Assembly: GCA_964407715.1 (NCBI GenBank)
Contig: CAYOWP010000002.1
Location: 1-53,827 of the forward strand
DNA length: 53,827 nucleotides
Direction: 5' to 3'
Origin: an uncultured archaeon
Lineage (GTDB): Archaea; EX4484-52; JAADEF01
Part shown: positions 3,706 to 16,476 of the stretch, piece after piece
Position numbering within the stretch: the stretch's first letter is position 1
Layout of the letters: each line of letters opens with the position of its first letter
Notes under the pieces: model-generated
The model's input: only the letters and a program-made list of their open reading frames with translations
Told to the model about the DNA's origin: nothing
The model's database searches: none
Program-made: the position numbers and the translations under genes

Positions 3706-4145
3706 GGCATTGTCCAATAATTCTTTATTGTTAAGCGGAAACTTAACCTCTTACAGAAGTGCATGAGAGCAGTTAACTGTTGAATAGGGCTATGCTTCCC
3801 GTTAACCAAAATTTTTTATTTTTGAAAAAATAATGGTTAACGTGCAGGATCGCTAACACAAAGGTATTGCAGCATGCTAACCTTTCTTCAGGTTAGTTGC
3901 TTCCCAAACGCTCAGATGGATTAGCATACCATAAAGTGCCTTTTGAGAAGGTATGTCTCCCCGTTAACCATTTATCTCAAATAAATAAAATTGGTTAACG
4001 CAAAAACTCGCTTTATCACAGGTATTGCAGCATGCTAACCGCCTTGAAAAAGGGTCAGCTGCTTTGAAATGATTTTTGAGATATTATGATTCCCATTAAC
4101 AATCTTCCAAATTTATTTTGGTTAAAAAGCTTGCAGCATGTCAAT
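3706..4145. repeat. Modular palindromic repeat array, copy E1, with left 18-bp cap
   Basis: Cap GGCATTGTCCAATAATTC at 3706-3723. Monomers at 3729-3778, 3835-3882, 3891-3969 (includes extension module), 3993-4040 and 4053-4101, in alternating orientation. Confidence 0.9.
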
Positions 4146-4158
4146 ACATTTTAAATAA

Positions 4159-4938
4159 TCATCTTAACCCATAGAATTCCACAAAATTCTTATATATGGT
4201 GTTGGCAACCTCCTCAATAGAAATCTTTTTTATTTCTGCAATTTTTTCTAATGTTAACTTTACGTTCCATGGATAGTTGATCTCGTTTGGTATTGGAGAG
4301 AGATAAGGAGCATCTGTCTCTGTGAGCATATTTTCAAGATTCAATCTTTTCACAACTTTTTTAACATTCTTGCTTCTTGTTATATTAGTACATATTGCAG
4401 CCAAAAAGCCATGTTCATGTATAATCTCACAATGCTTTGGAGAACCATAACAATGCATCACAACTCTGTTGTCTTTTTTATGATTTGATACAATTCTTAT
4501 CACATCTTCCTCAGCATCCCATGAATGTGTTATGACAGGCAACCTTAATTCATCTGCAAGAGATATTTGCATTATAAATCTCTCTTTCATCTTCTCTATT
4601 TTTTCTTTTTCCTTTACCCAATGATAATCAAGCCCTATTTCTCCAATTCCTATCAAATTTTTTAATTTTTTTGAGGATTGCTTTATAAACTCAAGAGCCT
4701 CCTCAAATTCCTTTTCAGAGAGTTTTATAGAATCAACAGGATGAATACCTAAGGTGATGAGAAATCTCTCTTTATTTGAAAACAACTCTACAGCTTTTTT
4801 ATTCCATATATCATTTGCCCCAGAGACCACAACATATCTCATTCTTTTTTCACATTCCTTTATTACATCATCTCTAATCCCATCAAATTTTTCATGCTGT
4901 AAATGTGAATGATTATCTACCAATGGCAATTCATCCAT
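4159..4938 (-). CDS. tatD: TatD family deoxyribonuclease
   Basis: DNHSHL, GIHP, IGEIGLDY, HCY and ETDAPY motifs. Confidence 0.93.
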   Translation of the reverse strand: MDELPLVDNHSHLQHEKFDGIRDDVIKECEKRMRYVVVSGANDIWNKKAVELFSNKERFLITLGIHPVDSIKLSEKEFEEALEFIKQSSKKLKNLIGIGEIGLDYHWVKEKEKIEKMKERFIMQISLADELRLPVITHSWDAEEDVIRIVSNHKKDNRVVMHCYGSPKHCEIIHEHGFLAAICTNITRSKNVKKVVKRLNLENMLTETDAPYLSPIPNEINYPWNVKLTLEKIAEIKKISIEEVANTIYKNFVEFYGLR

Positions 4939-6793
4939 TGTTTTTCACCTTATTATATATCTTTGCTATATCTTTTGCATCTACTCTCATACCGTATTTA
5001 TTTTTTAAATGAGCTATTATCTCGCTTAATCTCGCATCTTTCATTCCAACAATTTCCTTTTCTATTTTCTCCTCAGAAATCTTCCAAAGATTTTCTTTCT
5101 CAATAATTGCATCAGGATGATTTTGGTCTTTATATGATTTTGCAAGCACATACAAAAAAGCATCCTTGCTTATCCTATTATTTGTATAATGCTCAATGCA
5201 TATAAGAGCAAAAGAAGGATTCTTTAGCACATCTATCTTTTCCTTTCTCTCAACATCCCTAACTACATTCAAAAGAACATTTATCTTCTCTTTTGTTTTT
5301 GTCTCAAAGAACTCCTTATTCTCGATATAAATATCAAAATACTTTGATTCCAACAATTGAGATACGATTTCCTCATTCAATTCCCTTGCCCTCAACTCTT
5401 CTTTAATTTCATCTAAACTCTTTGGAAGATCTCTCTTTAATTCCTCTATGAAATCATCATCTATTAGTATTGGAGGAACATCTGTCTCAGGATACATCCT
5501 TGCAGAGCCAGGTAAAGGGCGTAGATATGTTGTATCTCCGCTATCCAAAACCTTACGTGTCTCATTATTTAAACCATCATTAATAAGTGAAACAAAGAAT
5601 CTTTTAATTTCCTCTCTCACATCTTCTGCAATCTCTTTGCTACCAATAACAAAAATTATTAAATCTTGTGGAGAATATTTTTGTGTTATGATTTTCTCGG
5701 CCTCATCCTTTATATGATATCTTCCAAGATCCTCATCGCTATGAATAAACCCGCGGCTTTTTGTTCTGACCTTTACATAACCAGCAATCTCATTGCCCAA
5801 AGTTCTGGTAGGAGTTAATTTTATCCTAAAAAGCCCTTTCATGTCTTTAATAGCAAACACATAAACTTCCTTTCCTTTAAATAAATTGCTCTTACTATCC
5901 TTAAAATACTCGCTTACATTTATCACATCAGTTATCCTTAAGTTATAATTACGCAATTTTTCTCTCAACTTTATTAAAGCATATTGTCTCATGACCTCCT
6001 TTTTCACAATTTCATGTAGCATATCAATATCTTGCACTCCCTTAATTTCAACTCTGCATCCTTTGTTTATAGAGATGTTTATATCCTGTCTAATGCTTCC
6101 TAAACCTCTCTGATAGTATCCAGTACTTTTTAATAAATCTCCTATCTTCTTTGCTGTTTCCTTAACATGCTCAGCATCTTTTAAATCAGGAGAAGTAGAT
6201 ATTTCTATTAATGGTATTCCCAATCTCCTGAGATCATATATCACTTTGCTCTCATCTTGTGAAATGATTTGCGCACTCTCCTCTTCTAAGCATACTGTTT
6301 CTATTCCAACATCTCCTTTAGATGTTTCTATTTTGCCTTTATAGCCAATAATTCCTGTTCTTTGGAATCCTGTAGTATTTGATCCATCAACAACAATCTT
6401 ACGCATGAAAATGATTTCAGGAGGTATTTTACATTTAAGCAACAAGCATGTCTTCAATGCACGTGATATGGTTTCTTTTTCTGGTAATAGAGGAGGTTCC
6501 TCATCAGCATCTATTAAGCAACATCCCTTATCATAAAAGACATATTCATAGTATCTTCCCTTTTTTACCTCCTCAAGAGCTGCCTTATCTATCTCCTCTA
6601 TTTCGCTTTTAGATAATGAAAGCACCCTCCTTATTCTTAAAACCTCTTTTGCATCCTCAACCTCATTTAAATTTCCATTACATCTACAAAAAAGTTTCTT
6701 ACCTTTTAATCTCCTATGTATCTCTATACCTGCTTTGAAGCCCAATGCCTGATAATCTATCTCCTTAAGAAGAAACTCGTCTTCTCTAAACAT
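4931..6793 (-). CDS. gatE: Glu-tRNA(Gln) amidotransferase subunit E
   Basis: GFKAGIEIH, KLFC, MRKIVVDGSNTTGFQRT, RGLGSIRQDINISI and RPLPGSARMYPETD motifs. Confidence 0.96.
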   Translation of the reverse strand: MFREDEFLLKEIDYQALGFKAGIEIHRRLKGKKLFCRCNGNLNEVEDAKEVLRIRRVLSLSKSEIEEIDKAALEEVKKGRYYEYVFYDKGCCLIDADEEPPLLPEKETISRALKTCLLLKCKIPPEIIFMRKIVVDGSNTTGFQRTGIIGYKGKIETSKGDVGIETVCLEEESAQIISQDESKVIYDLRRLGIPLIEISTSPDLKDAEHVKETAKKIGDLLKSTGYYQRGLGSIRQDINISINKGCRVEIKGVQDIDMLHEIVKKEVMRQYALIKLREKLRNYNLRITDVINVSEYFKDSKSNLFKGKEVYVFAIKDMKGLFRIKLTPTRTLGNEIAGYVKVRTKSRGFIHSDEDLGRYHIKDEAEKIITQKYSPQDLIIFVIGSKEIAEDVREEIKRFFVSLINDGLNNETRKVLDSGDTTYLRPLPGSARMYPETDVPPILIDDDFIEELKRDLPKSLDEIKEELRARELNEEIVSQLLESKYFDIYIENKEFFETKTKEKINVLLNVVRDVERKEKIDVLKNPSFALICIEHYTNNRISKDAFLYVLAKSYKDQNHPDAIIEKENLWKISEEKIEKEIVGMKDARLSEIIAHLKNKYGMRVDAKDIAKIYNKVKNNG

Positions 6794-7591: not shown

Positions 7592-8317
7592 TTACTCATT
7601 TATGAGATACCTCTCATATTTTCTCTGTAATGCCCTCTTCTGAAGTTTATATATCTCTATACATCCCTTTTTTGCCAACTCTATCATCTCATGTATTTCA
7701 TCTACATCAGTTATTCCATCCATCTGTAAGAGAACAACCTCGTCTGTTGAAGGTAAATAAGCAAATGGCAAATCCACAGCATTTTCCACATCCTCCTCCT
7801 CTTTATTTAAATCAAGGACAATCTCTCCATTAACCCTTCCAACAGCTACTGCTGGCAATAAATCTCTCATATGTATGCCTGCATCTGCCAAAGCAACTGA
7901 TGCTGCTGTAAGTGCAGCAACTCTTGTTCCAGCATCTGCTTGAACAACCTCCAAGTAAACATCTATTGCTGTTCTTGGATAATCCTCTAAAAATACCACT
8001 CTCCTTAATGCATGTTCTATAACCTTACTTATTTCCATTGATCTCTTATCAGGACCTGGTTTCTTTCTATCAGGCACAGAGAAAGTTATCATATTATATC
8101 TTACTCTCAACAGAGCTTTTTCCTGATCCTCTAAATGTTTCGGAATGACTTTACGCGGACCATACACGGCTGCGAAAACTATTGTCTTTCCTGATTGAAC
8201 CATGGCTGACCCATCTGCCTTCGAGATAACACCTGCTTCTATAATATATGGCTTCCTTAATTCATCCCTCTTCCTGCCATCAATCCTTACAAATTCATCT
8301 TTTTGTTTCTTTGTCAT
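7592..8317 (-). CDS. rrp41: Exosome complex exonuclease Rrp41
   Basis: RIDGRKRDELR, ADGSA, AAVYGPR, ADAGTR and DLNKEEED motifs. ATG 8317 preferred over GTG 8326. Confidence 0.95.
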   Translation of the reverse strand: MTKKQKDEFVRIDGRKRDELRKPYIIEAGVISKADGSAMVQSGKTIVFAAVYGPRKVIPKHLEDQEKALLRVRYNMITFSVPDRKKPGPDKRSMEISKVIEHALRRVVFLEDYPRTAIDVYLEVVQADAGTRVAALTAASVALADAGIHMRDLLPAVAVGRVNGEIVLDLNKEEEDVENAVDLPFAYLPSTDEVVLLQMDGITDVDEIHEMIELAKKGCIEIYKLQKRALQRKYERYLINE

Positions 8318-8325
8318 GTTTCTCA

Positions 8326-9042
8326 CTAAGATTTAAGCTTTTCTTCTATTAACTTACCTACCATATCTGTCAAACCTTTTTTTAATGAATTCTCTTCAAC
8401 ATACATTATGGCCTCTGCAGCAACATCTGCATTTTTTCCATAAATCCAAATTCTGCCATTTTGTCCAACAAGAATTCTTGTTTGTGTCTTCTCTTTTATT
8501 ACTTTAATCATGCTACCTCCTCTTCCAATTACCCTTGGAACCTTTGATGCAGGAATTTCAATCACATATCCTTTATGCAATTTCTTTGCTTGTGGATCTT
8601 TCATGGTTAAGTTTATATATTTTGTCTTTGTAACCCTAAATATCTTGGCATATATTAAATCTCCAACATCATATATGTTTGAGATGTCAACCTCTTTATC
8701 TATAAAATCTGCTATATCATATATGCCCAAGAAACCATCATAAGGAGAATTTATATCTACTAACCAAAAGTTTACTCCTATGTCTATTATCTCTCCAATA
8801 ACATAATCTCCAGGTTTTGGTAGATATATTCCATTTAAAGGAATAACATTTATCACTGAGCCTCTCTTCTTTACAATTCCAACTGTCTTAGATATTATCT
8901 TATTCTCTCTTCTATAAACTCCTGATCCTGGGATAGCATCCAAACCTTCATAAATAATCTCCCCTGGATAAACAATCTTAGTGATATCGCTCAGGGAATT
9001 TATTTTCTCATCTTGCTTTTGTGAGGATGTTTTTTTAATCAT
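8326..9042 (-). CDS. rrp4: Exosome RNA-binding subunit Rrp4
   Basis: S1 and KH domains: YLPKPGDYVIG, VDINSPY, PRVIGRGGSMI, VGQNGRIW. Confidence 0.95.
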   Translation of the reverse strand: MIKKTSSQKQDEKINSLSDITKIVYPGEIIYEGLDAIPGSGVYRRENKIISKTVGIVKKRGSVINVIPLNGIYLPKPGDYVIGEIIDIGVNFWLVDINSPYDGFLGIYDIADFIDKEVDISNIYDVGDLIYAKIFRVTKTKYINLTMKDPQAKKLHKGYVIEIPASKVPRVIGRGGSMIKVIKEKTQTRILVGQNGRIWIYGKNADVAAEAIMYVEENSLKKGLTDMVGKLIEEKLKS

Positions 9043-9043
9043 A

Positions 9044-9742
9044 TCATTTCCCTCTTTTTATTTCTCTTATCTCTCCTTCACCTTTTGTTAACTTATTTAC
9101 AGTGCTAAAAAGAGCGTCTATTAATCCTGCAGGGATTTCTATTTGGCAGACATAGTGTGTGGTACCCCAATCTTCAGATTTTATTTTTCCAATTCTGCTT
9201 AACTCATTTCGCATCTTACCAGAGATATCTAATGTACATCTTATCTCATATATCTTTGATTCAATCTTTATAGGTAACACGGATCTCAATGCAGATATTG
9301 CATCTTCTATTTGTTTTTCTACACTTTTAAAAGGATCAACTCTAAATTTCACTTGCTCCATTGCATGCTCTATACGTGTAGGAGTTAATGGAAGGTTTGT
9401 TTGAGCATCTATTGCGTGTGTTGAGATAAAATTTATTATTTTTCTCTTCTTTTCCTCTATGATCTCTCTTCTTTGCTCCTCTGTTAATTGTATCTCTCCT
9501 TTTTGTATGATTTCTTTGCATATCTCATAGAATGATTTTTCTCCAAAAATCTCTTTTATGTCTCTCTCTTTGGCCCTCTGAGCTTTTCTTATATCCTCGA
9601 ATATGCCATCCCCTATTATAATTTCTGAGATATCAACCTTATCAGGATGTTTTAAATACTCATTGTATTTATTCCAATTTAACAATATCTCAAATTTTTT
9701 TCCTTTTATTTTATATCTTGCTATAATTTCTTTTACTTTCAT
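9044..9742 (-). CDS. Ribosome maturation protein SBDS/Sdo1
   Basis: KFEIL, KGEIQLT and IEIPAG motifs; conserved position between psmA and rrp4. Confidence 0.93.
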   Translation of the reverse strand: MKVKEIIARYKIKGKKFEILLNWNKYNEYLKHPDKVDISEIIIGDGIFEDIRKAQRAKERDIKEIFGEKSFYEICKEIIQKGEIQLTEEQRREIIEEKKRKIINFISTHAIDAQTNLPLTPTRIEHAMEQVKFRVDPFKSVEKQIEDAISALRSVLPIKIESKIYEIRCTLDISGKMRNELSRIGKIKSEDWGTTHYVCQIEIPAGLIDALFSTVNKLTKGEGEIREIKRGK

Positions 9743-10440
9743 ATCTTTACACCTATCTTTTTAATATCCTCCTGAGACAATTCCTTATATCCTGTTTTTT
9801 CATCAATAATGCTCATCTGTATATTTGCATCCTTTAATTTTCCTTCTAGTTTTAATAATTTTATGCTTAACATTGCTGCTTCTTTTAATGAAAGTGAAGC
9901 ATCCCATTCTTTTTCCAATATCTCATTCGCTTTATCTTCTTCTCTTCCTATTGCACGTGCATTGCATTGTATGAGAATCCCAGAAGGGTCAGTTTGATAA
10001 ATTGTCTTACCTTTTTCATCTATTCCTCCTATAAGTAAGCTAACTCCAAATGGTCTCACTCCAGCATATTGTGTATAGGATTGAATTCTATCAGCTATGT
10101 ATTTTGCTATGCTTACAACACTTGGCTTTTCCTCATATAATAATCTATGTTGCTGTGCCTTTAATCTTGCTATATCTATCAATACTCTGCTATCTCCAAC
10201 AAATCCGGCACTTGCAGCACCTATAAAATGATCTATTTTATAGATTTTATCTGCTGGCTTAACCAATCGAGATTGTTTTGTTCTTGATGCAAAAAGGATG
10301 CCATTCTTATAAATCATTACAATAGCCATTGATCCTTTTTTAACTGCTTCTCTTGCATATTCTACTTGAAACAATCTTCCATCTGGAGAAAATACTACTA
10401 TTGCTCTGTCATATCCCATGCTCTCAGGAGTTAAATCCAT
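9739..10440 (-). CDS. psmA: Proteasome alpha subunit
   Basis: GYDRAIVVFSPDGRLFQVEYAREAV and RPFGVSLL motifs; GAGGTGA Shine-Dalgarno upstream. Confidence 0.97.
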   Translation of the reverse strand: MDLTPESMGYDRAIVVFSPDGRLFQVEYAREAVKKGSMAIVMIYKNGILFASRTKQSRLVKPADKIYKIDHFIGAASAGFVGDSRVLIDIARLKAQQHRLLYEEKPSVVSIAKYIADRIQSYTQYAGVRPFGVSLLIGGIDEKGKTIYQTDPSGILIQCNARAIGREEDKANEILEKEWDASLSLKEAAMLSIKLLKLEGKLKDANIQMSIIDEKTGYKELSQEDIKKIGVKI

Positions 10441-10530
10441 TTATCTCACCTCTCAAAACATAGGAAATCACTCATCAATATTTAAATAAAATAATTATGA
10501 AAATTTAAAAAATTGGAAATTATAAAATTT

Positions 10531-11300
10531 GGTTCAATTTGGGTAGAAAAGTTTCTTAATGGTTGATTAGAGGAATAGCCAACCAAAGAACAACTTAAAA
10601 AGGTTAGCTTTCTACGAAATCTTTATGAAAGTAATATCCTCACATTAACCATTTTTATTTATTTAACATAGATGGTTAATGGGAAGAGGTCATCTCAAAA
10701 TTGCAGTTTGCAGTAGGTGACCTCTTTGAGTGTTTAGGAAGCAGTTAACCTAAAGAAGAGGTTAGCATTCTGTGATATGCTATTGAAAGGTGATATCCTC
10801 CAGTTAACAATCTTTTATTTATTTGATATAATTGGTTAACGGAAATCATACCTCCCTGAGAGAGCATATCACAACAGCTAACCTCTCTGAGCGTTTAGGA
10901 AGCAGTTAACCATTAAAATAGGTTAGCATGCTCTTATGTGCTTAGTATAGTGATATTCTCCCGTTAACAATTTTATTCAAAATAAATAAAAAATGGTTAA
11001 TGGGAAAATGTCATCTCAAAAGGCACATTAGAGCATGCTAACCGTTTAAGGAGGATAGCGTGCTGTAATATGGTTGCGATAGCGATTCTGCGCGTTAACG
11101 AGTTATATTGAATAAATAAAATATGGTTAACAGGAAGTGTACATTACATCAATGGTACTATGCAGCAGCTATCCTTTTGAAGAGGTTAGCTGCTCTAAAA
11201 CCTCCGCAAAAGATGACGTCTCTCCGTTAACCATTTTTATCTAAAAATTTTTAGTTAACAGGGAGATATATTGTGATATAGAGCACAGTTCCAATTAACA
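10531..11300. repeat. Modular palindromic repeat array, copy E2 (largest; 9 full monomers, no cap seen)
   Basis: Monomers at 10602-10650, 10674-10722, 10760-10809, 10834-10883, 10921-10969, 10995-11043, 11053-11100, 11125-11174 and 11184-11232. 28-bp modules at 10723-10750 and 10884-10911. Confidence 0.93.
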
Positions 11301-11340
11301 AATTTTAATATTTAAAATATTAAAATATATGCTTTAATAT

Positions 11341-11607
11341 ATGGTTTCATCTGAGAGTTCAGATATCGAAAACAGGATAAGGAGTGAAACTCTCAAATGG
11401 TTAGATAAAATAAAAAATACAAAAATAGAGGAAATAGAGGAAAATAGAATAGCTAAAGAAATAAAGGAAAATATAAAGGCATATATAAAGGATACAGAAT
11501 ATTTCTTAGGGAGGAATATGCTCATTGAGGCTTTTGAATCAATTGTTTGGGCATGGGCATGGTTGGAAATAGGAGCAAGATTGAATATACTTAAAATGGT
11601 GAAATGA
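11341..11607 (+). CDS. DUF357 family protein
   Basis: AYIKDTEYF...AFESIVWAWAWLEIG resembles the archaeal DUF357 pattern. Confidence 0.75.
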   Translation: MVSSESSDIENRIRSETLKWLDKIKNTKIEEIEENRIAKEIKENIKAYIKDTEYFLGRNMLIEAFESIVWAWAWLEIGARLNILKMVK

Positions 11608-12516
11608 ATGTTAAGGATTGTTTTCTTGGGGACAAGCGCAGCAATACCTACAAGAGATAGAAATACACCATGTATTTATTTTGAGTACGATTATGATATT
11701 AGATTTCTCATTGATATTGGTGAATGTTGCCAAAAGGAATTAATGAAAAGAAATCTAAAATTTATGAGAATAAACCACATATTCATATCGCATTGGCATG
11801 CTGATCACTTTGCAGGTCTTATAGGGCTTATACATACAATGGCTCTTGAAGGTAGAGAAAAGCCACTTCATATTTATGGTCCAAAGAGAACTAAGGAATT
11901 TGTTGATAAAATAACAACCTTAGGATATTATGCAAGAAAGTTTCCTATAATATCTCATGAATTAAAAGATAATGAAGAGGTGGATTTTGATTATTTTACG
12001 ATTAAAGCGATGGAGGTTGAACATAGAATTCCATCGCTTGGATATATATTTGAGGAAAAGGAAAAGCTTAGAGCAAACATGGAAAAGGCAAAACAATATG
12101 GTCTTAGGACAGGGCCTCTTATAGGAAAGTTAAAGAGGGGAGAAGAAATAGTGTTTAAAGGAAAAATTATAAGACCTCAAGATATCATAGAGCATATAAA
12201 GGGCTTAAAGGTTGTATATACAGGAGATACAAAATATACAAGCAAGATTGTTGAATATGCAAAAGATGCTGATCTTCTAATTGCAGAAGCAACATTAGAT
12301 GAAGAAGATTTTGATGAGAGCTTATATCATTTATCTAATGTGCAAGCAGCAGAGATTGGAAAAGCTGCTAATGTAAAGAAGGTTGTTCTTACGCATATCT
12401 CTAGAAGATATACATCAAAAAAAGAAAGTTTGGAGAATTTCTTAAAAAAAGCAAAAGATATATTTGAGAATATAGAGATTGCCTATGATGGCATGGAAAT
12501 TATTCTCAAGAAATAA
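11608..12516 (+). CDS. rnz: Ribonuclease Z
   Basis: FLGTSAAIP, HWHADH, YTGDT, EAT and LTHISRRY motifs; GP exosite arm. Confidence 0.95.
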   Translation: MLRIVFLGTSAAIPTRDRNTPCIYFEYDYDIRFLIDIGECCQKELMKRNLKFMRINHIFISHWHADHFAGLIGLIHTMALEGREKPLHIYGPKRTKEFVDKITTLGYYARKFPIISHELKDNEEVDFDYFTIKAMEVEHRIPSLGYIFEEKEKLRANMEKAKQYGLRTGPLIGKLKRGEEIVFKGKIIRPQDIIEHIKGLKVVYTGDTKYTSKIVEYAKDADLLIAEATLDEEDFDESLYHLSNVQAAEIGKAANVKKVVLTHISRRYTSKKESLENFLKKAKDIFENIEIAYDGMEIILKK

Positions 12517-14027: not shown

Positions 14028-14173
14028 GGCATTGTCCAATAATTCCCTCTTAACAAAATTTTGTTAAGCGGAGACATAACCTCCAAAATAGCACTTCATA
14101 GCAGTTTAACCATTTAAATAGGGCTATACCTCTTGTTAACCAAATTTCTCAAAATACATTATTGGACAATGCC
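14028..14173. mobile_element. 146-bp MITE-like element (copy E3 of the repeat family) with perfect 16-bp terminal inverted repeats
   Basis: GGCATTGTCCAATAAT (14028-14043) and ATTATTGGACAATGCC (14158-14173) enclose about one and a half monomers. No target-site duplication seen. Confidence 0.75.
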
Positions 14174-15902: not shown

Positions 15903-16140
15903 AACGTTTCCAATAATTCTTTATTGTTAAGCAGAAACATAACCTCCAAAATAGCACTTCATAGCAGTTTAACCATTTAAATAGGGATGTGCTTCCTGTT
16001 AACAAATTGTCCAATAATTTTTGATGAGGATTTGTTAACGAAAAAATTCGTTCTTACAATCGCATTAGCTCTACAAAGTTAGCTTGCTCTAATGCACTTC
16101 TTTAAGAGGTTACTTTAATAGAGAATTATTGGACAATGCC
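15903..16140. repeat. Repeat-family copy E4 (nested, capped)
   Basis: Degenerate cap at 15903-15919, internal cap at 16006-16019, perfect right cap GAATTATTGGACAATGCC at 16123-16140. Shares a 50-bp identical stretch with E3. Confidence 0.88.
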
Positions 16141-16186
16141 AATAAAAAGACATCTCAAAAATGTTAAAGATTTCTTTAATAAGATT

Positions 16187-16476
16187 GGTTAACTGGAAGC
16201 TACCCAGTCAATGAGCAGCAGTAGAGCAGCTAACCTTAAAGATGAAGTTAGCATGCTACAAAACCTGTAGTAATAGCGATTTCTTCCCGTTAATAATTTT
16301 TATCTATTTAGAATAATTGGTTAACAAGAAACATAGCCTTATTCAAATGGTTTTTGGAGCAGGTTAACATGGGTGAAAGGTTACTTGCTTCATAATCGCT
16401 ATGAAGGGTTAATTGCTCTCATGTGCTTCTGTAAGAGATTACTTTTTCGCTTAACAAATGGAGAATTATTGGACAA
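16187..16476. repeat. Repeat-family copy E5 with right cap
   Basis: Monomers at 16187-16235, 16246-16295, 16319-16369 and 16407-16456; 28-bp module at 16379-16406; cap GAATTATTGGACAA at 16463-16476. Confidence 0.88.

Follow-up and report, generated by a model that had tools for sequence, protein, structure and literature searches.

The analysis described here concerns a palindromic array in the DNA of an uncultured archaeon (GTDB lineage EX4484-52; JAADEF01), carried on contig CAYOWP010000002.1 of assembly GCA_964407715.1, the whole 53,827 nucleotides of which are referred to below as the window. The array fills much of the gap between psmA, the gene for the proteasome alpha subunit, and a gene for a DUF357 protein, and it is no local oddity but one of about 130 clusters of a single repeat family spread through the genome. 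We consider it probable that the array is a cluster of lineage-specific, non-coding and non-autonomous palindromic repeats, that is, selfish DNA of the kind represented by MITEs (miniature inverted-repeat transposable elements) and by repetitive extragenic palindromes (REPs) assembled into bacterial interspersed mosaic elements (BIMEs).

A genome-wide repeat family

The gap between the two divergent genes (10441-11340, 900 bp; psmA read leftward, the DUF357 gene rightward) contains, by sequence reading combined with a repeat finder, an array at 10602-11299 composed of nine detectable and two degenerate monomers of 48-50 bp in alternating orientation, each bounded by GGTTARC and GYTAACC boxes. 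The box GGTTARC occurs 25 times in the window, against 4.96 occurrences expected and with none of 100 shuffles reaching 25, and 11 of these sites fall in 10602-11232. In the same interval a profile built from the monomers matches nine of them (nhmmer), the edge copies at 10531-10585 and 11253-11299 being degenerate and giving no profile match at E<=1; the window as a whole holds 23 profile matches. The head-to-head A/T linkers of the array measure 20-26 bp, and the repeat finder reports periods of 128-130 and 159-161 bp. An Rfam scan of the whole window at gathering score returned two tRNAs only, leaving the array without any RNA-family match.

The assembly (16 contigs, 92% complete, 32% GC; the window is its contig C2) contains a contig, C9 (44,012 bp), nearly the whole of which repeats C8:7161-50856 in reverse complement at 100% identity. 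About 44 kb of the assembly is thus redundant, which inflates raw repeat counts if C9 is kept; the monomer and cluster totals given next come from an iterated nhmmer search of 854.5 kb with C9 excluded. The search yielded 618 monomers in 134 clusters, amounting to 41.5 kb or 4.9% of the searched sequence and to about 35% of the non-coding DNA, taken as the sequence outside crude open reading frame (ORF) calls, and only 7 of 139 clusters overlap such a call by more than 50 bp. Neighbouring monomers alternate in orientation in 433 cases and share it in 48. The tail-to-tail gaps (n=211) have modes at 9 and 37 nt, with 68 at exactly 9, 102 at 8-10, 82 at 35-40 and 27 at other lengths, and the head-to-head gaps have a median of 21 with a 5-95% range of 12.6-27.5, so that the strict grammar of the window array appears as a tidy sample of a looser rule. 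Monomer length is 48-51 nt in 279 of 286 full-model matches; among all 655 profile matches 417 are full length, and about a third are partial or degenerate. In the column profile the monomers end in GGTTAAC and GCTAACC, and their cores, which are common to several loci, form subfamilies with 64-67% identity within each. These arrays break assemblies, a monomer being found within 300 bp of 10 of the 32 contig ends.

The original prediction, made from the letters of the window, had described alternating monomers with conserved ends, about 20 of them in the window, and periods of ~130 and ~160 bp, all of which agree with the counts above, and the four 9-bp tail-to-tail linkers that it quoted recur exactly (Table 1). 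Other parts of it needed revision: the head-to-head linkers are indeed A/T tracts, but not of a strict 23-25 bp; the extra module is present and is resolved as a 19-nt mini-monomer between two 9-nt linkers; the cores are divergent, as claimed, but not free-form, falling as they do into subfamilies; and the strictness of the spacing does not hold, head-to-head linker lengths drifting genome-wide. The observation is confirmed, and the interpretation then attached to it is partly supported.

Table 1. Positions of the array components, flanking genes and related clusters in the window
Feature	Position	Strand	Evidence
psmA, proteasome alpha subunit, left flank	9739..10440	-	Pfam Proteasome 2.2e-44 + Proteasome_A_N; ORF list
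Degenerate monomer-like stretch, left edge, ending ...AGCCAACC	10531..10585	+	by eye
Reverse monomer	10602..10650	-	nhmmer 23.5 bits, model positions 1-50
Head-to-head A/T linker, 23 bp	10651..10673	.	sequence reading
Forward monomer, degenerate tail GGTGACC	10674..10722	+	nhmmer 13.1 bits, model positions 1-44
Long tail-to-tail linker: 9 nt + 19-nt mini-module (10732-10750) + 9 nt; second 9-nt linker TAAAGAAGA	10723..10759	+	
Reverse monomer	10760..10808	-	nhmmer 33.6 bits
Head-to-head A/T linker, ~25 bp	10809..10833	.	sequence reading
Forward monomer	10834..10883	+	nhmmer 27.8 bits
Long tail-to-tail linker: 9 nt + 19-nt mini-module (10893-10911) + 9 nt; second 9-nt linker ATTAAAATA	10884..10920	+	
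Reverse monomer	10921..10969	-	nhmmer 38.9 bits
Head-to-head A/T linker, ~25 bp	10970..10994	.	sequence reading
Complete short unit (monomers 10995-11043 forward and 11053-11100 reverse, joined by the 9-nt linker GTTTAAGGA)	10995..11100	+	nhmmer 36.8 / 26.2 bits
Head-to-head A/T linker, 24 bp	11101..11124	.	sequence reading
Second short unit (monomers 11125-11174 forward and 11184-11232 reverse, joined by the 9-nt linker TTTTGAAGA)	11125..11232	+	nhmmer 11.5 / 20.4 bits
Degenerate monomer, right edge, GTTAAC...ATTAAC	11253..11299	+	by eye
DUF357 gene, right flank	11341..11607	+	Pfam DUF357 1.6e-15
tRNase Z-like gene, directly after the DUF357 gene	11608..12516	.	Lactamase_B_4/tRNase Z
Another cluster of the same family, 6 profile matches; MITE terminal repeat 3706-3722 abuts	3729..4101	.	
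Third window cluster, 7 profile matches, intermixed with MITE terminal repeats 16005-16140	15925..16456	.	

The linker region 10884-10920 belongs to a repeat-finder family (D1) with 81% identity to 10715-10781. On its left the array sits just upstream of a conserved archaeal exosome super-operon fragment, which occupies 7592-10440 on the minus strand in the order psmA, SBDS, Rrp4, Rrp41; psmA is thus the first gene of an exosome/SBDS block read leftward.

Unit architecture and folding

The true unit of the array is an asymmetric imperfect palindrome, in which two arm types are joined tail to tail by 9 or by 9+19+9 nt. It is about 107 bp long, or about 135 bp when the 19-nt mini-module is present; its bounds are GGTTAAC-GGGAAG heads running on into A-runs and T-runs, and its ends are inverted AAAAAT-GGTTAACGGGAAG heads. 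In the head-to-head linkers of the whole genome, the sequence read outward from either head is A, then a T run (A-TTTTT), then A-rich, and, since this pattern is alike on both sides, the heads extend into inverted A/T runs. Among the 62 arrays of at least four monomers, 30 open on a forward head and close on a reverse one, 7 show the opposite and 25 are mixed, and solo elements are likewise built as forward-9-reverse. The inverse partition, in which a reverse arm, an A/T linker and a forward arm would make up the unit, is ruled out by these array edges (7/62 vs 30/62) and by the solo units. The 37-nt linker, of which 24 examples genome-wide gave a consensus, consists of 9 nt, the 19-nt mini-module GGTTAGgAAGCAGcTAACC and another 9 nt; the junction TAACC-N9-GGTTA is therefore found once in short units and twice in long units.

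The two arms differ in their tails, which read AGCAGCTAACC in type N and AGCATGCTAACC in type X, the latter having one extra base. The two arms form an N-X pair in 44 of the 52 short units and 32 of the 38 long units that were classified; across the A/T linker, 56 of 67 neighbours are paired in this way, and exactly one arm carries the extra base in 76 of the 90 classified units. At the level of core subfamilies, B-B and C-C pairs were observed 0-1 times, against 2.5-5.8 expected. Polarity is uniform in all six arrays that hold two or more typed units. Together, the N-X heterodimers and the uniform polarity indicate that the seemingly alternating monomers are copies of an asymmetric, imperfect palindrome repeated directly in tandem.

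A single unit folds into a long imperfect hairpin, with z -2.6 to -5.0 on either strand; for the two short units of the window array the values on the two strands are -2.6 / -3.1 (10995-11100) and -5.0 / -3.9 (11125-11232). Pairing and covariation were scored on 55 short units against a hand-written structure, and this gave 87% pairing for the outer box stem, 91% for the inner box stem and 49% for the core, the pairing of the unit being carried only by the conserved boxes. All five measures of covariation lay below their shuffled controls (paired cells, for example, 68.9% vs 71.9 +/- 0.5 shuffled, with 500 of 500 shuffles at least as high), and RNAalifold returned 0 consensus pairs on the same 55 units. 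At polymorphic stem columns, 29 of 55 units are unpaired at 7/108 and 26 of 55 at 47/69, and no compensation was found at the polymorphic positions beside the boxes, where partner columns are uncorrelated or, in the case of column 7, anti-correlated. The cores of real neighbours are anti-complementary, pairing worse than shuffled partners (z -3.1 to -4.9), and the strongest mutual information in the monomers links adjacent columns rather than Watson-Crick partners. In units of defined polarity the two flanks resemble each other, so no promoter side is visible. The lack of covariation and the pairing of cores below the shuffled level argue against a selected RNA or single-stranded DNA hairpin, and, with the symmetric flanks, they leave the earlier proposal of a selected hairpin or processed RNA unsupported. 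Long perfect inverted repeats are known to be unstable, and the results on structure fit the survival of only those palindromes that have a mismatched middle, such survival being attributable to this instability.

Relation to a miniature element and distribution among genomes

Most isolated monomer-like matches lie inside another element, whose ends carry a 16-17-bp terminal inverted repeat. Inverted pairs of this terminal repeat number 48 and are spaced 85-390 bp, and 9-bp direct repeats (at least 8/9 match) flank 15 of the 48 pairs, against 0 of 48 in a shifted control, from which this other element is recognised as a MITE flanked by target duplications of 9 bp. The interior of the MITE shows homology to the array monomer, and 58 of the 89 small clusters (1-5 monomers) lie beside a MITE terminal repeat. 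Copies or ends of the MITE in the window are at 3706-3722, 14028-14173 and 16005-16140. The 9-bp tail linker of the arrays was also considered as a relic of target duplication, and this is ruled out: across the genome they conform to one quasi-palindromic consensus, TTTTnnARA, and they are part of the element. For comparison, IS903B is described as an IS5-family element making 9-bp direct target repeats (PMC9769513), and a prokaryotic MITE census lists DPANN genomes among the MITE-densest archaea (PMC11602168).

The only long terminal-repeat pair (1,362 bp, on contig C6) was inspected as a possible carrier of a transposase, and it encloses an AAA ATPase gene instead. At C6:57500-59800 (L019), adjacent same-strand ORFs of 433 aa and 196 aa share near-identical C-terminal stretches of ~60 residues, the similarity running on into the DNA downstream of both ORFs, and the larger ORF has by eye the look of an AAA-type ATPase with a Walker-type motif. 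The 10 single matches of the terminal-repeat 17-mer in viral contigs are at a rough chance level. Single matches with 1-2 mismatches are present in 14 of 60 other archaeal genomes; one of these (L036) lies in a stretch that is otherwise unrelated and has no second terminal repeat.

A sequence-profile search gave no member of the repeat family in any of the 60 other archaeal genomes covered, of which 1 belongs to the same genus, 3 to the same family and 37 to the same order, with 19 others making up the rest. The exact junction pattern occurs in 0 of 40 relatives, in which BLAST gave nothing besides one 25-nt match at E 0.005, and the exact pattern was found in 0 species representatives and 0 viral contigs. 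Two true metagenome matches come from the same organism, at ~99% identity, while another (L016), containing the search pattern once and no monomer by profile, is taken as chance. Judged by such sequence matching, the repeat family is confined to this organism among the genomes searched. Genomes of the same family have a compact region upstream of psmA. In the same-genus genome a contig (L010, G001:C106:1-200) reaches only 150 bp upstream of the psmA orthologue, breaking off where the window has its array, and this contig end is not repeated elsewhere in that assembly.

A metagenome contig of the same organism, with flanks 99% identical, has 23 differences from contig C11 in 2,058 bp, and 21 of the 23 are clustered inside the array, none in a box column. 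This clustering suggests ectopic recombination among copies, assembly chimerism being a possible alternative. In the metagenome contig L017, positions 1-927 match C1:927-1 at 99.9% and positions 4570-6620 match C11:1-2051 at 99.1%, and it thus appears to bridge the starts of C1 and C11; the L017 array differs from that of C11 by a net ~96 bp at the far end, with no clean gain or loss of a unit.

Box conservation and competing explanations

In the mechanism that we favour for this probably selfish repeat family, the module would be spread through the genome in part with the MITE as its vehicle and/or by a putative box-recognising enzyme, and the clusters would then be enlarged via tandem duplication, while ectopic recombination would reshuffle the cores. 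The invariant GGTTAA/TAACC boxes may be recognition sites that keep the copies competent, and only units with mismatched cores would persist, long perfect palindromes being unstable. Some local duplication is indicated by the finding that the closest relative of a unit lies in its own array for 22 of 171 units, against 2.6 expected; for the remaining 149 units it lies in another place.

Several observations weigh against a selfish origin of this kind. In a test of the boxes, in which nearest relatives were picked on one half-core and divergence was measured on the other half, the ten box positions (GGTTAA/TAACC) differ at 0.7-0.8% (24/3,625 and 27/3,531), whereas the core differs at 28-33% between nearest relatives. 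The edge of conservation is sharp, the values being 0% for columns 1-6, 32% for column 7, 33% for column 45 and 0-6% for columns 46-50. The profile leans on the boxes, which brings some ascertainment bias into their conservation; copies with one or two box changes are detectable yet rare. Near-invariant boxes alongside ~30% change imply that something sequence-specific reads or preserves them, and on this point the original prediction, which had the array read by some such factor, is upheld. Plain decay after insertion should erode the boxes too, and conserved boxes fit selfishness no better than a constraint at the level of the copy, which would be a host function. As to location, the clusters occupy, with the same crude ORF calls, 61 of 146 divergent intergenic regions (42%) but only 10-11% of the others (convergent, 17 of 148; co-directional, 47 of 459), an enrichment in divergent regions (odds ratio 6.1, p 8.5e-17) that tolerance alone does not explain. 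In addition, the median best identity between units is 82% and young copies are lacking, a MITE terminal repeat is missing within 80 bp of 37 of the 45 large arrays, and 0 of 45 arrays and solo units show a 9-bp direct repeat (at least 8/9) as a target duplication at any of 14 offsets.

The search for an enzyme adds to these difficulties. The 92%-complete assembly gave 0 matches to the Y1/HUH domain (PF01797, Y1_Tnp), for which the control was positive in 6 of 14 known genomes, and none over cut-off to the transposase families PF01609 (DDE_Tnp_1), PF13737 (DDE_Tnp_1_5), PF05598 (DUF772) and PF07282 (TnpB). The search controls were positive in known genomes except for PF13737, which appeared in 1 of 14 genomes and in none over cut-off, so that its blank counts little. 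The sole tyrosine recombinase of the assembly is XerA (261 bits vs a cut-off of 220), which falls below the integron-integrase cut-offs. Accordingly, a co-occurring HUH/RAYT protein, IS5-type transposase or integron integrase, as suggested previously, was not found in this assembly; given its 92% completeness and the 10 of 32 contig ends near monomers, an enzyme gene could be missing.

Both the invariance of the boxes and the bias to divergent gaps could stem from an active system of mobilisation or recombination that reads the boxes and has a preference for promoter DNA, and they could also stem from the use of the boxes by the host. For the latter case it may be supposed that a dimeric DNA-binding protein, nucleoid-associated, regulatory or insulating, reads the boxes at the fixed 9-bp spacing in domesticated arrays kept for organising promoter-side DNA. 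This has a rather small chance of being correct: near-invariant boxes with a sharp edge look like a recognition motif rather than a helix, the tail-to-tail spacing is 8-10 nt in 102 gaps with the 35-40 class (82 gaps) repeating the 9-nt junction twice, clusters are present in 42% of divergent regions, and 21 of 23 strain differences fall within the array but none in the box columns. However, no candidate protein was identified, and any such function would be very young, the family not being found in the same-genus and same-family genomes searched; about a third of the profile matches are partial or degenerate (417/655 full length), head-to-head spacing drifts from ~12 to 27, and ectopic recombination among box-sharing copies can also conserve the boxes. 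A small chance is left to a related possibility, an archaeal, RAYT-independent counterpart of the BIME, in which a putative protein would read the invariant boxes at the fixed 9-bp spacing, the one-base asymmetry would mark strand or polarity, and the role of the protein would be either to move the ~26-nt cores as cassettes from locus to locus or to organise the promoter regions of divergent genes, with the boxes under copy-level purifying selection.

The folding of the units bears on two further explanations. That the units are single-strand hairpin sites for recombination or transposition by an unrecognised enzyme, comparable to REP/RAYT, IS200/IS605 ends or attC, with the one-base asymmetry of the tail stem as an extrahelical strand marker, would agree with the long imperfect hairpins (z -2.6 to -5.0), with box stems 87% and 91% paired, with the single extra-base arm of 76 of 90 classified units, and with arrays lacking target duplications, as do hairpin-dependent elements. 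The chance of this is nevertheless slim, because the assembly has no Y1/HUH domain and XerA (261 bits, cut-off 220) as its only tyrosine recombinase, the polymorphic stem positions show no compensation (29/55 and 26/55 unpaired), there is no GTAG/CGTC tag, and heterotypy results automatically from the copying of whole units. Arrays of small structured RNA genes, or a precursor releasing ~49- or 107-nt units with guide-like variable cores, are very improbable. TATA-like and oligo-T stretches in the A/T linkers could in principle start and stop archaeal transcription, and the hairpin-like folds are better than those of shuffles; against this stand the absence of an Rfam match, 0 consensus pairs from RNAalifold on 55 units, covariation measures all under the shuffles, mutual information that peaks at neighbouring columns and not at Watson-Crick partners, polarity-defined flanks that are alike and offer no promoter side, and cores that fall into few subfamilies and are not unique.

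It is worth comparing the selfish repeat family that we prefer with known systems, above all with the REP/BIME elements of E. coli, Xanthomonas and Pseudomonas (REPIN-RAYT). In E. coli, BIMEs show a Y/Z alternation, and bacterial REP/BIME elements sit at gene 3' ends; the archaeal clusters have the opposite preference, favouring divergent promoter-side gaps. Both are high-copy, extragenic, lineage-specific families of regularly spaced, alternating units of two types with type-specific short linkers, and both are imperfect palindromes, so that the BIME-like architecture proposed earlier, with two monomer types alternating in orientation and type-specific linkers, is sustained. We follow the definition of the BIME in PMC2817692; a REP unit is an imperfect palindrome of 20-40 nt that has a GTAG (or CGTC) tag at one of its ends (PMC2817692, PMC3733652). 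The archaeal monomer differs in being 49-50 bp long and not itself palindromic, with no GTAG/CGTC tag in its column profile; its cores are far more variable than its boxes, and its archaeal host has no RAYT or other Y1 gene in the assembly. With prokaryotic MITEs, here a putative IS5-family/IS903-type one with 9-bp target duplications, the family shares small size, non-coding sequence, multiple copies and inverted ends, and the array module is carried inside the genome's true MITE, which has terminal repeats and 9-bp duplications; the arrays themselves, however, have neither MITE-type terminal repeats nor target duplications, are tandem and ordered rather than single insertions, and coexist with no IS5/IS903-type transposase domain in the assembly. 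Integron attC sites are also imperfect palindromes having conserved outer boxes with GTT/AAC, a variable middle and a conserved unpaired base, but here an integron integrase is lacking, and the sites follow one another at 9-25 bp with no gene cassettes between them. CRISPR arrays resemble the family in the regular alternation of conserved and variable segments of similar lengths; the archaeal repeats differ in alternating in orientation, in having "spacers" that are homologous between copies and loci, and in numbering ~130 loci, and the earlier rejection of CRISPR therefore stands. A limited literature search found no description of archaeal BIME-like or tandem MITE arrays in the portions of papers that it covered.

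Altogether, the array most likely belongs to a family of selfish repeats, BIME-like in build and related to a MITE, and is not likely to be an RNA gene or to work in the manner of CRISPR, with box reading by the host or by a putative recombination protein as the minority case. Archaeal genomes of the reduced, symbiont type are generally regarded as having shed their spare DNA, and here one ordered repeat family fills about a third of the non-coding DNA without a visible mover enzyme. Between strains, the arrays evolve ~20-fold faster than their flanks and could therefore serve as strain markers. The family offers a clean archaeal case for asking how BIME-like mosaics originate without RAYT and whether such repeats are purely selfish, and the near-invariant boxes together with the promoter-side bias may hint at more than pure selfishness.

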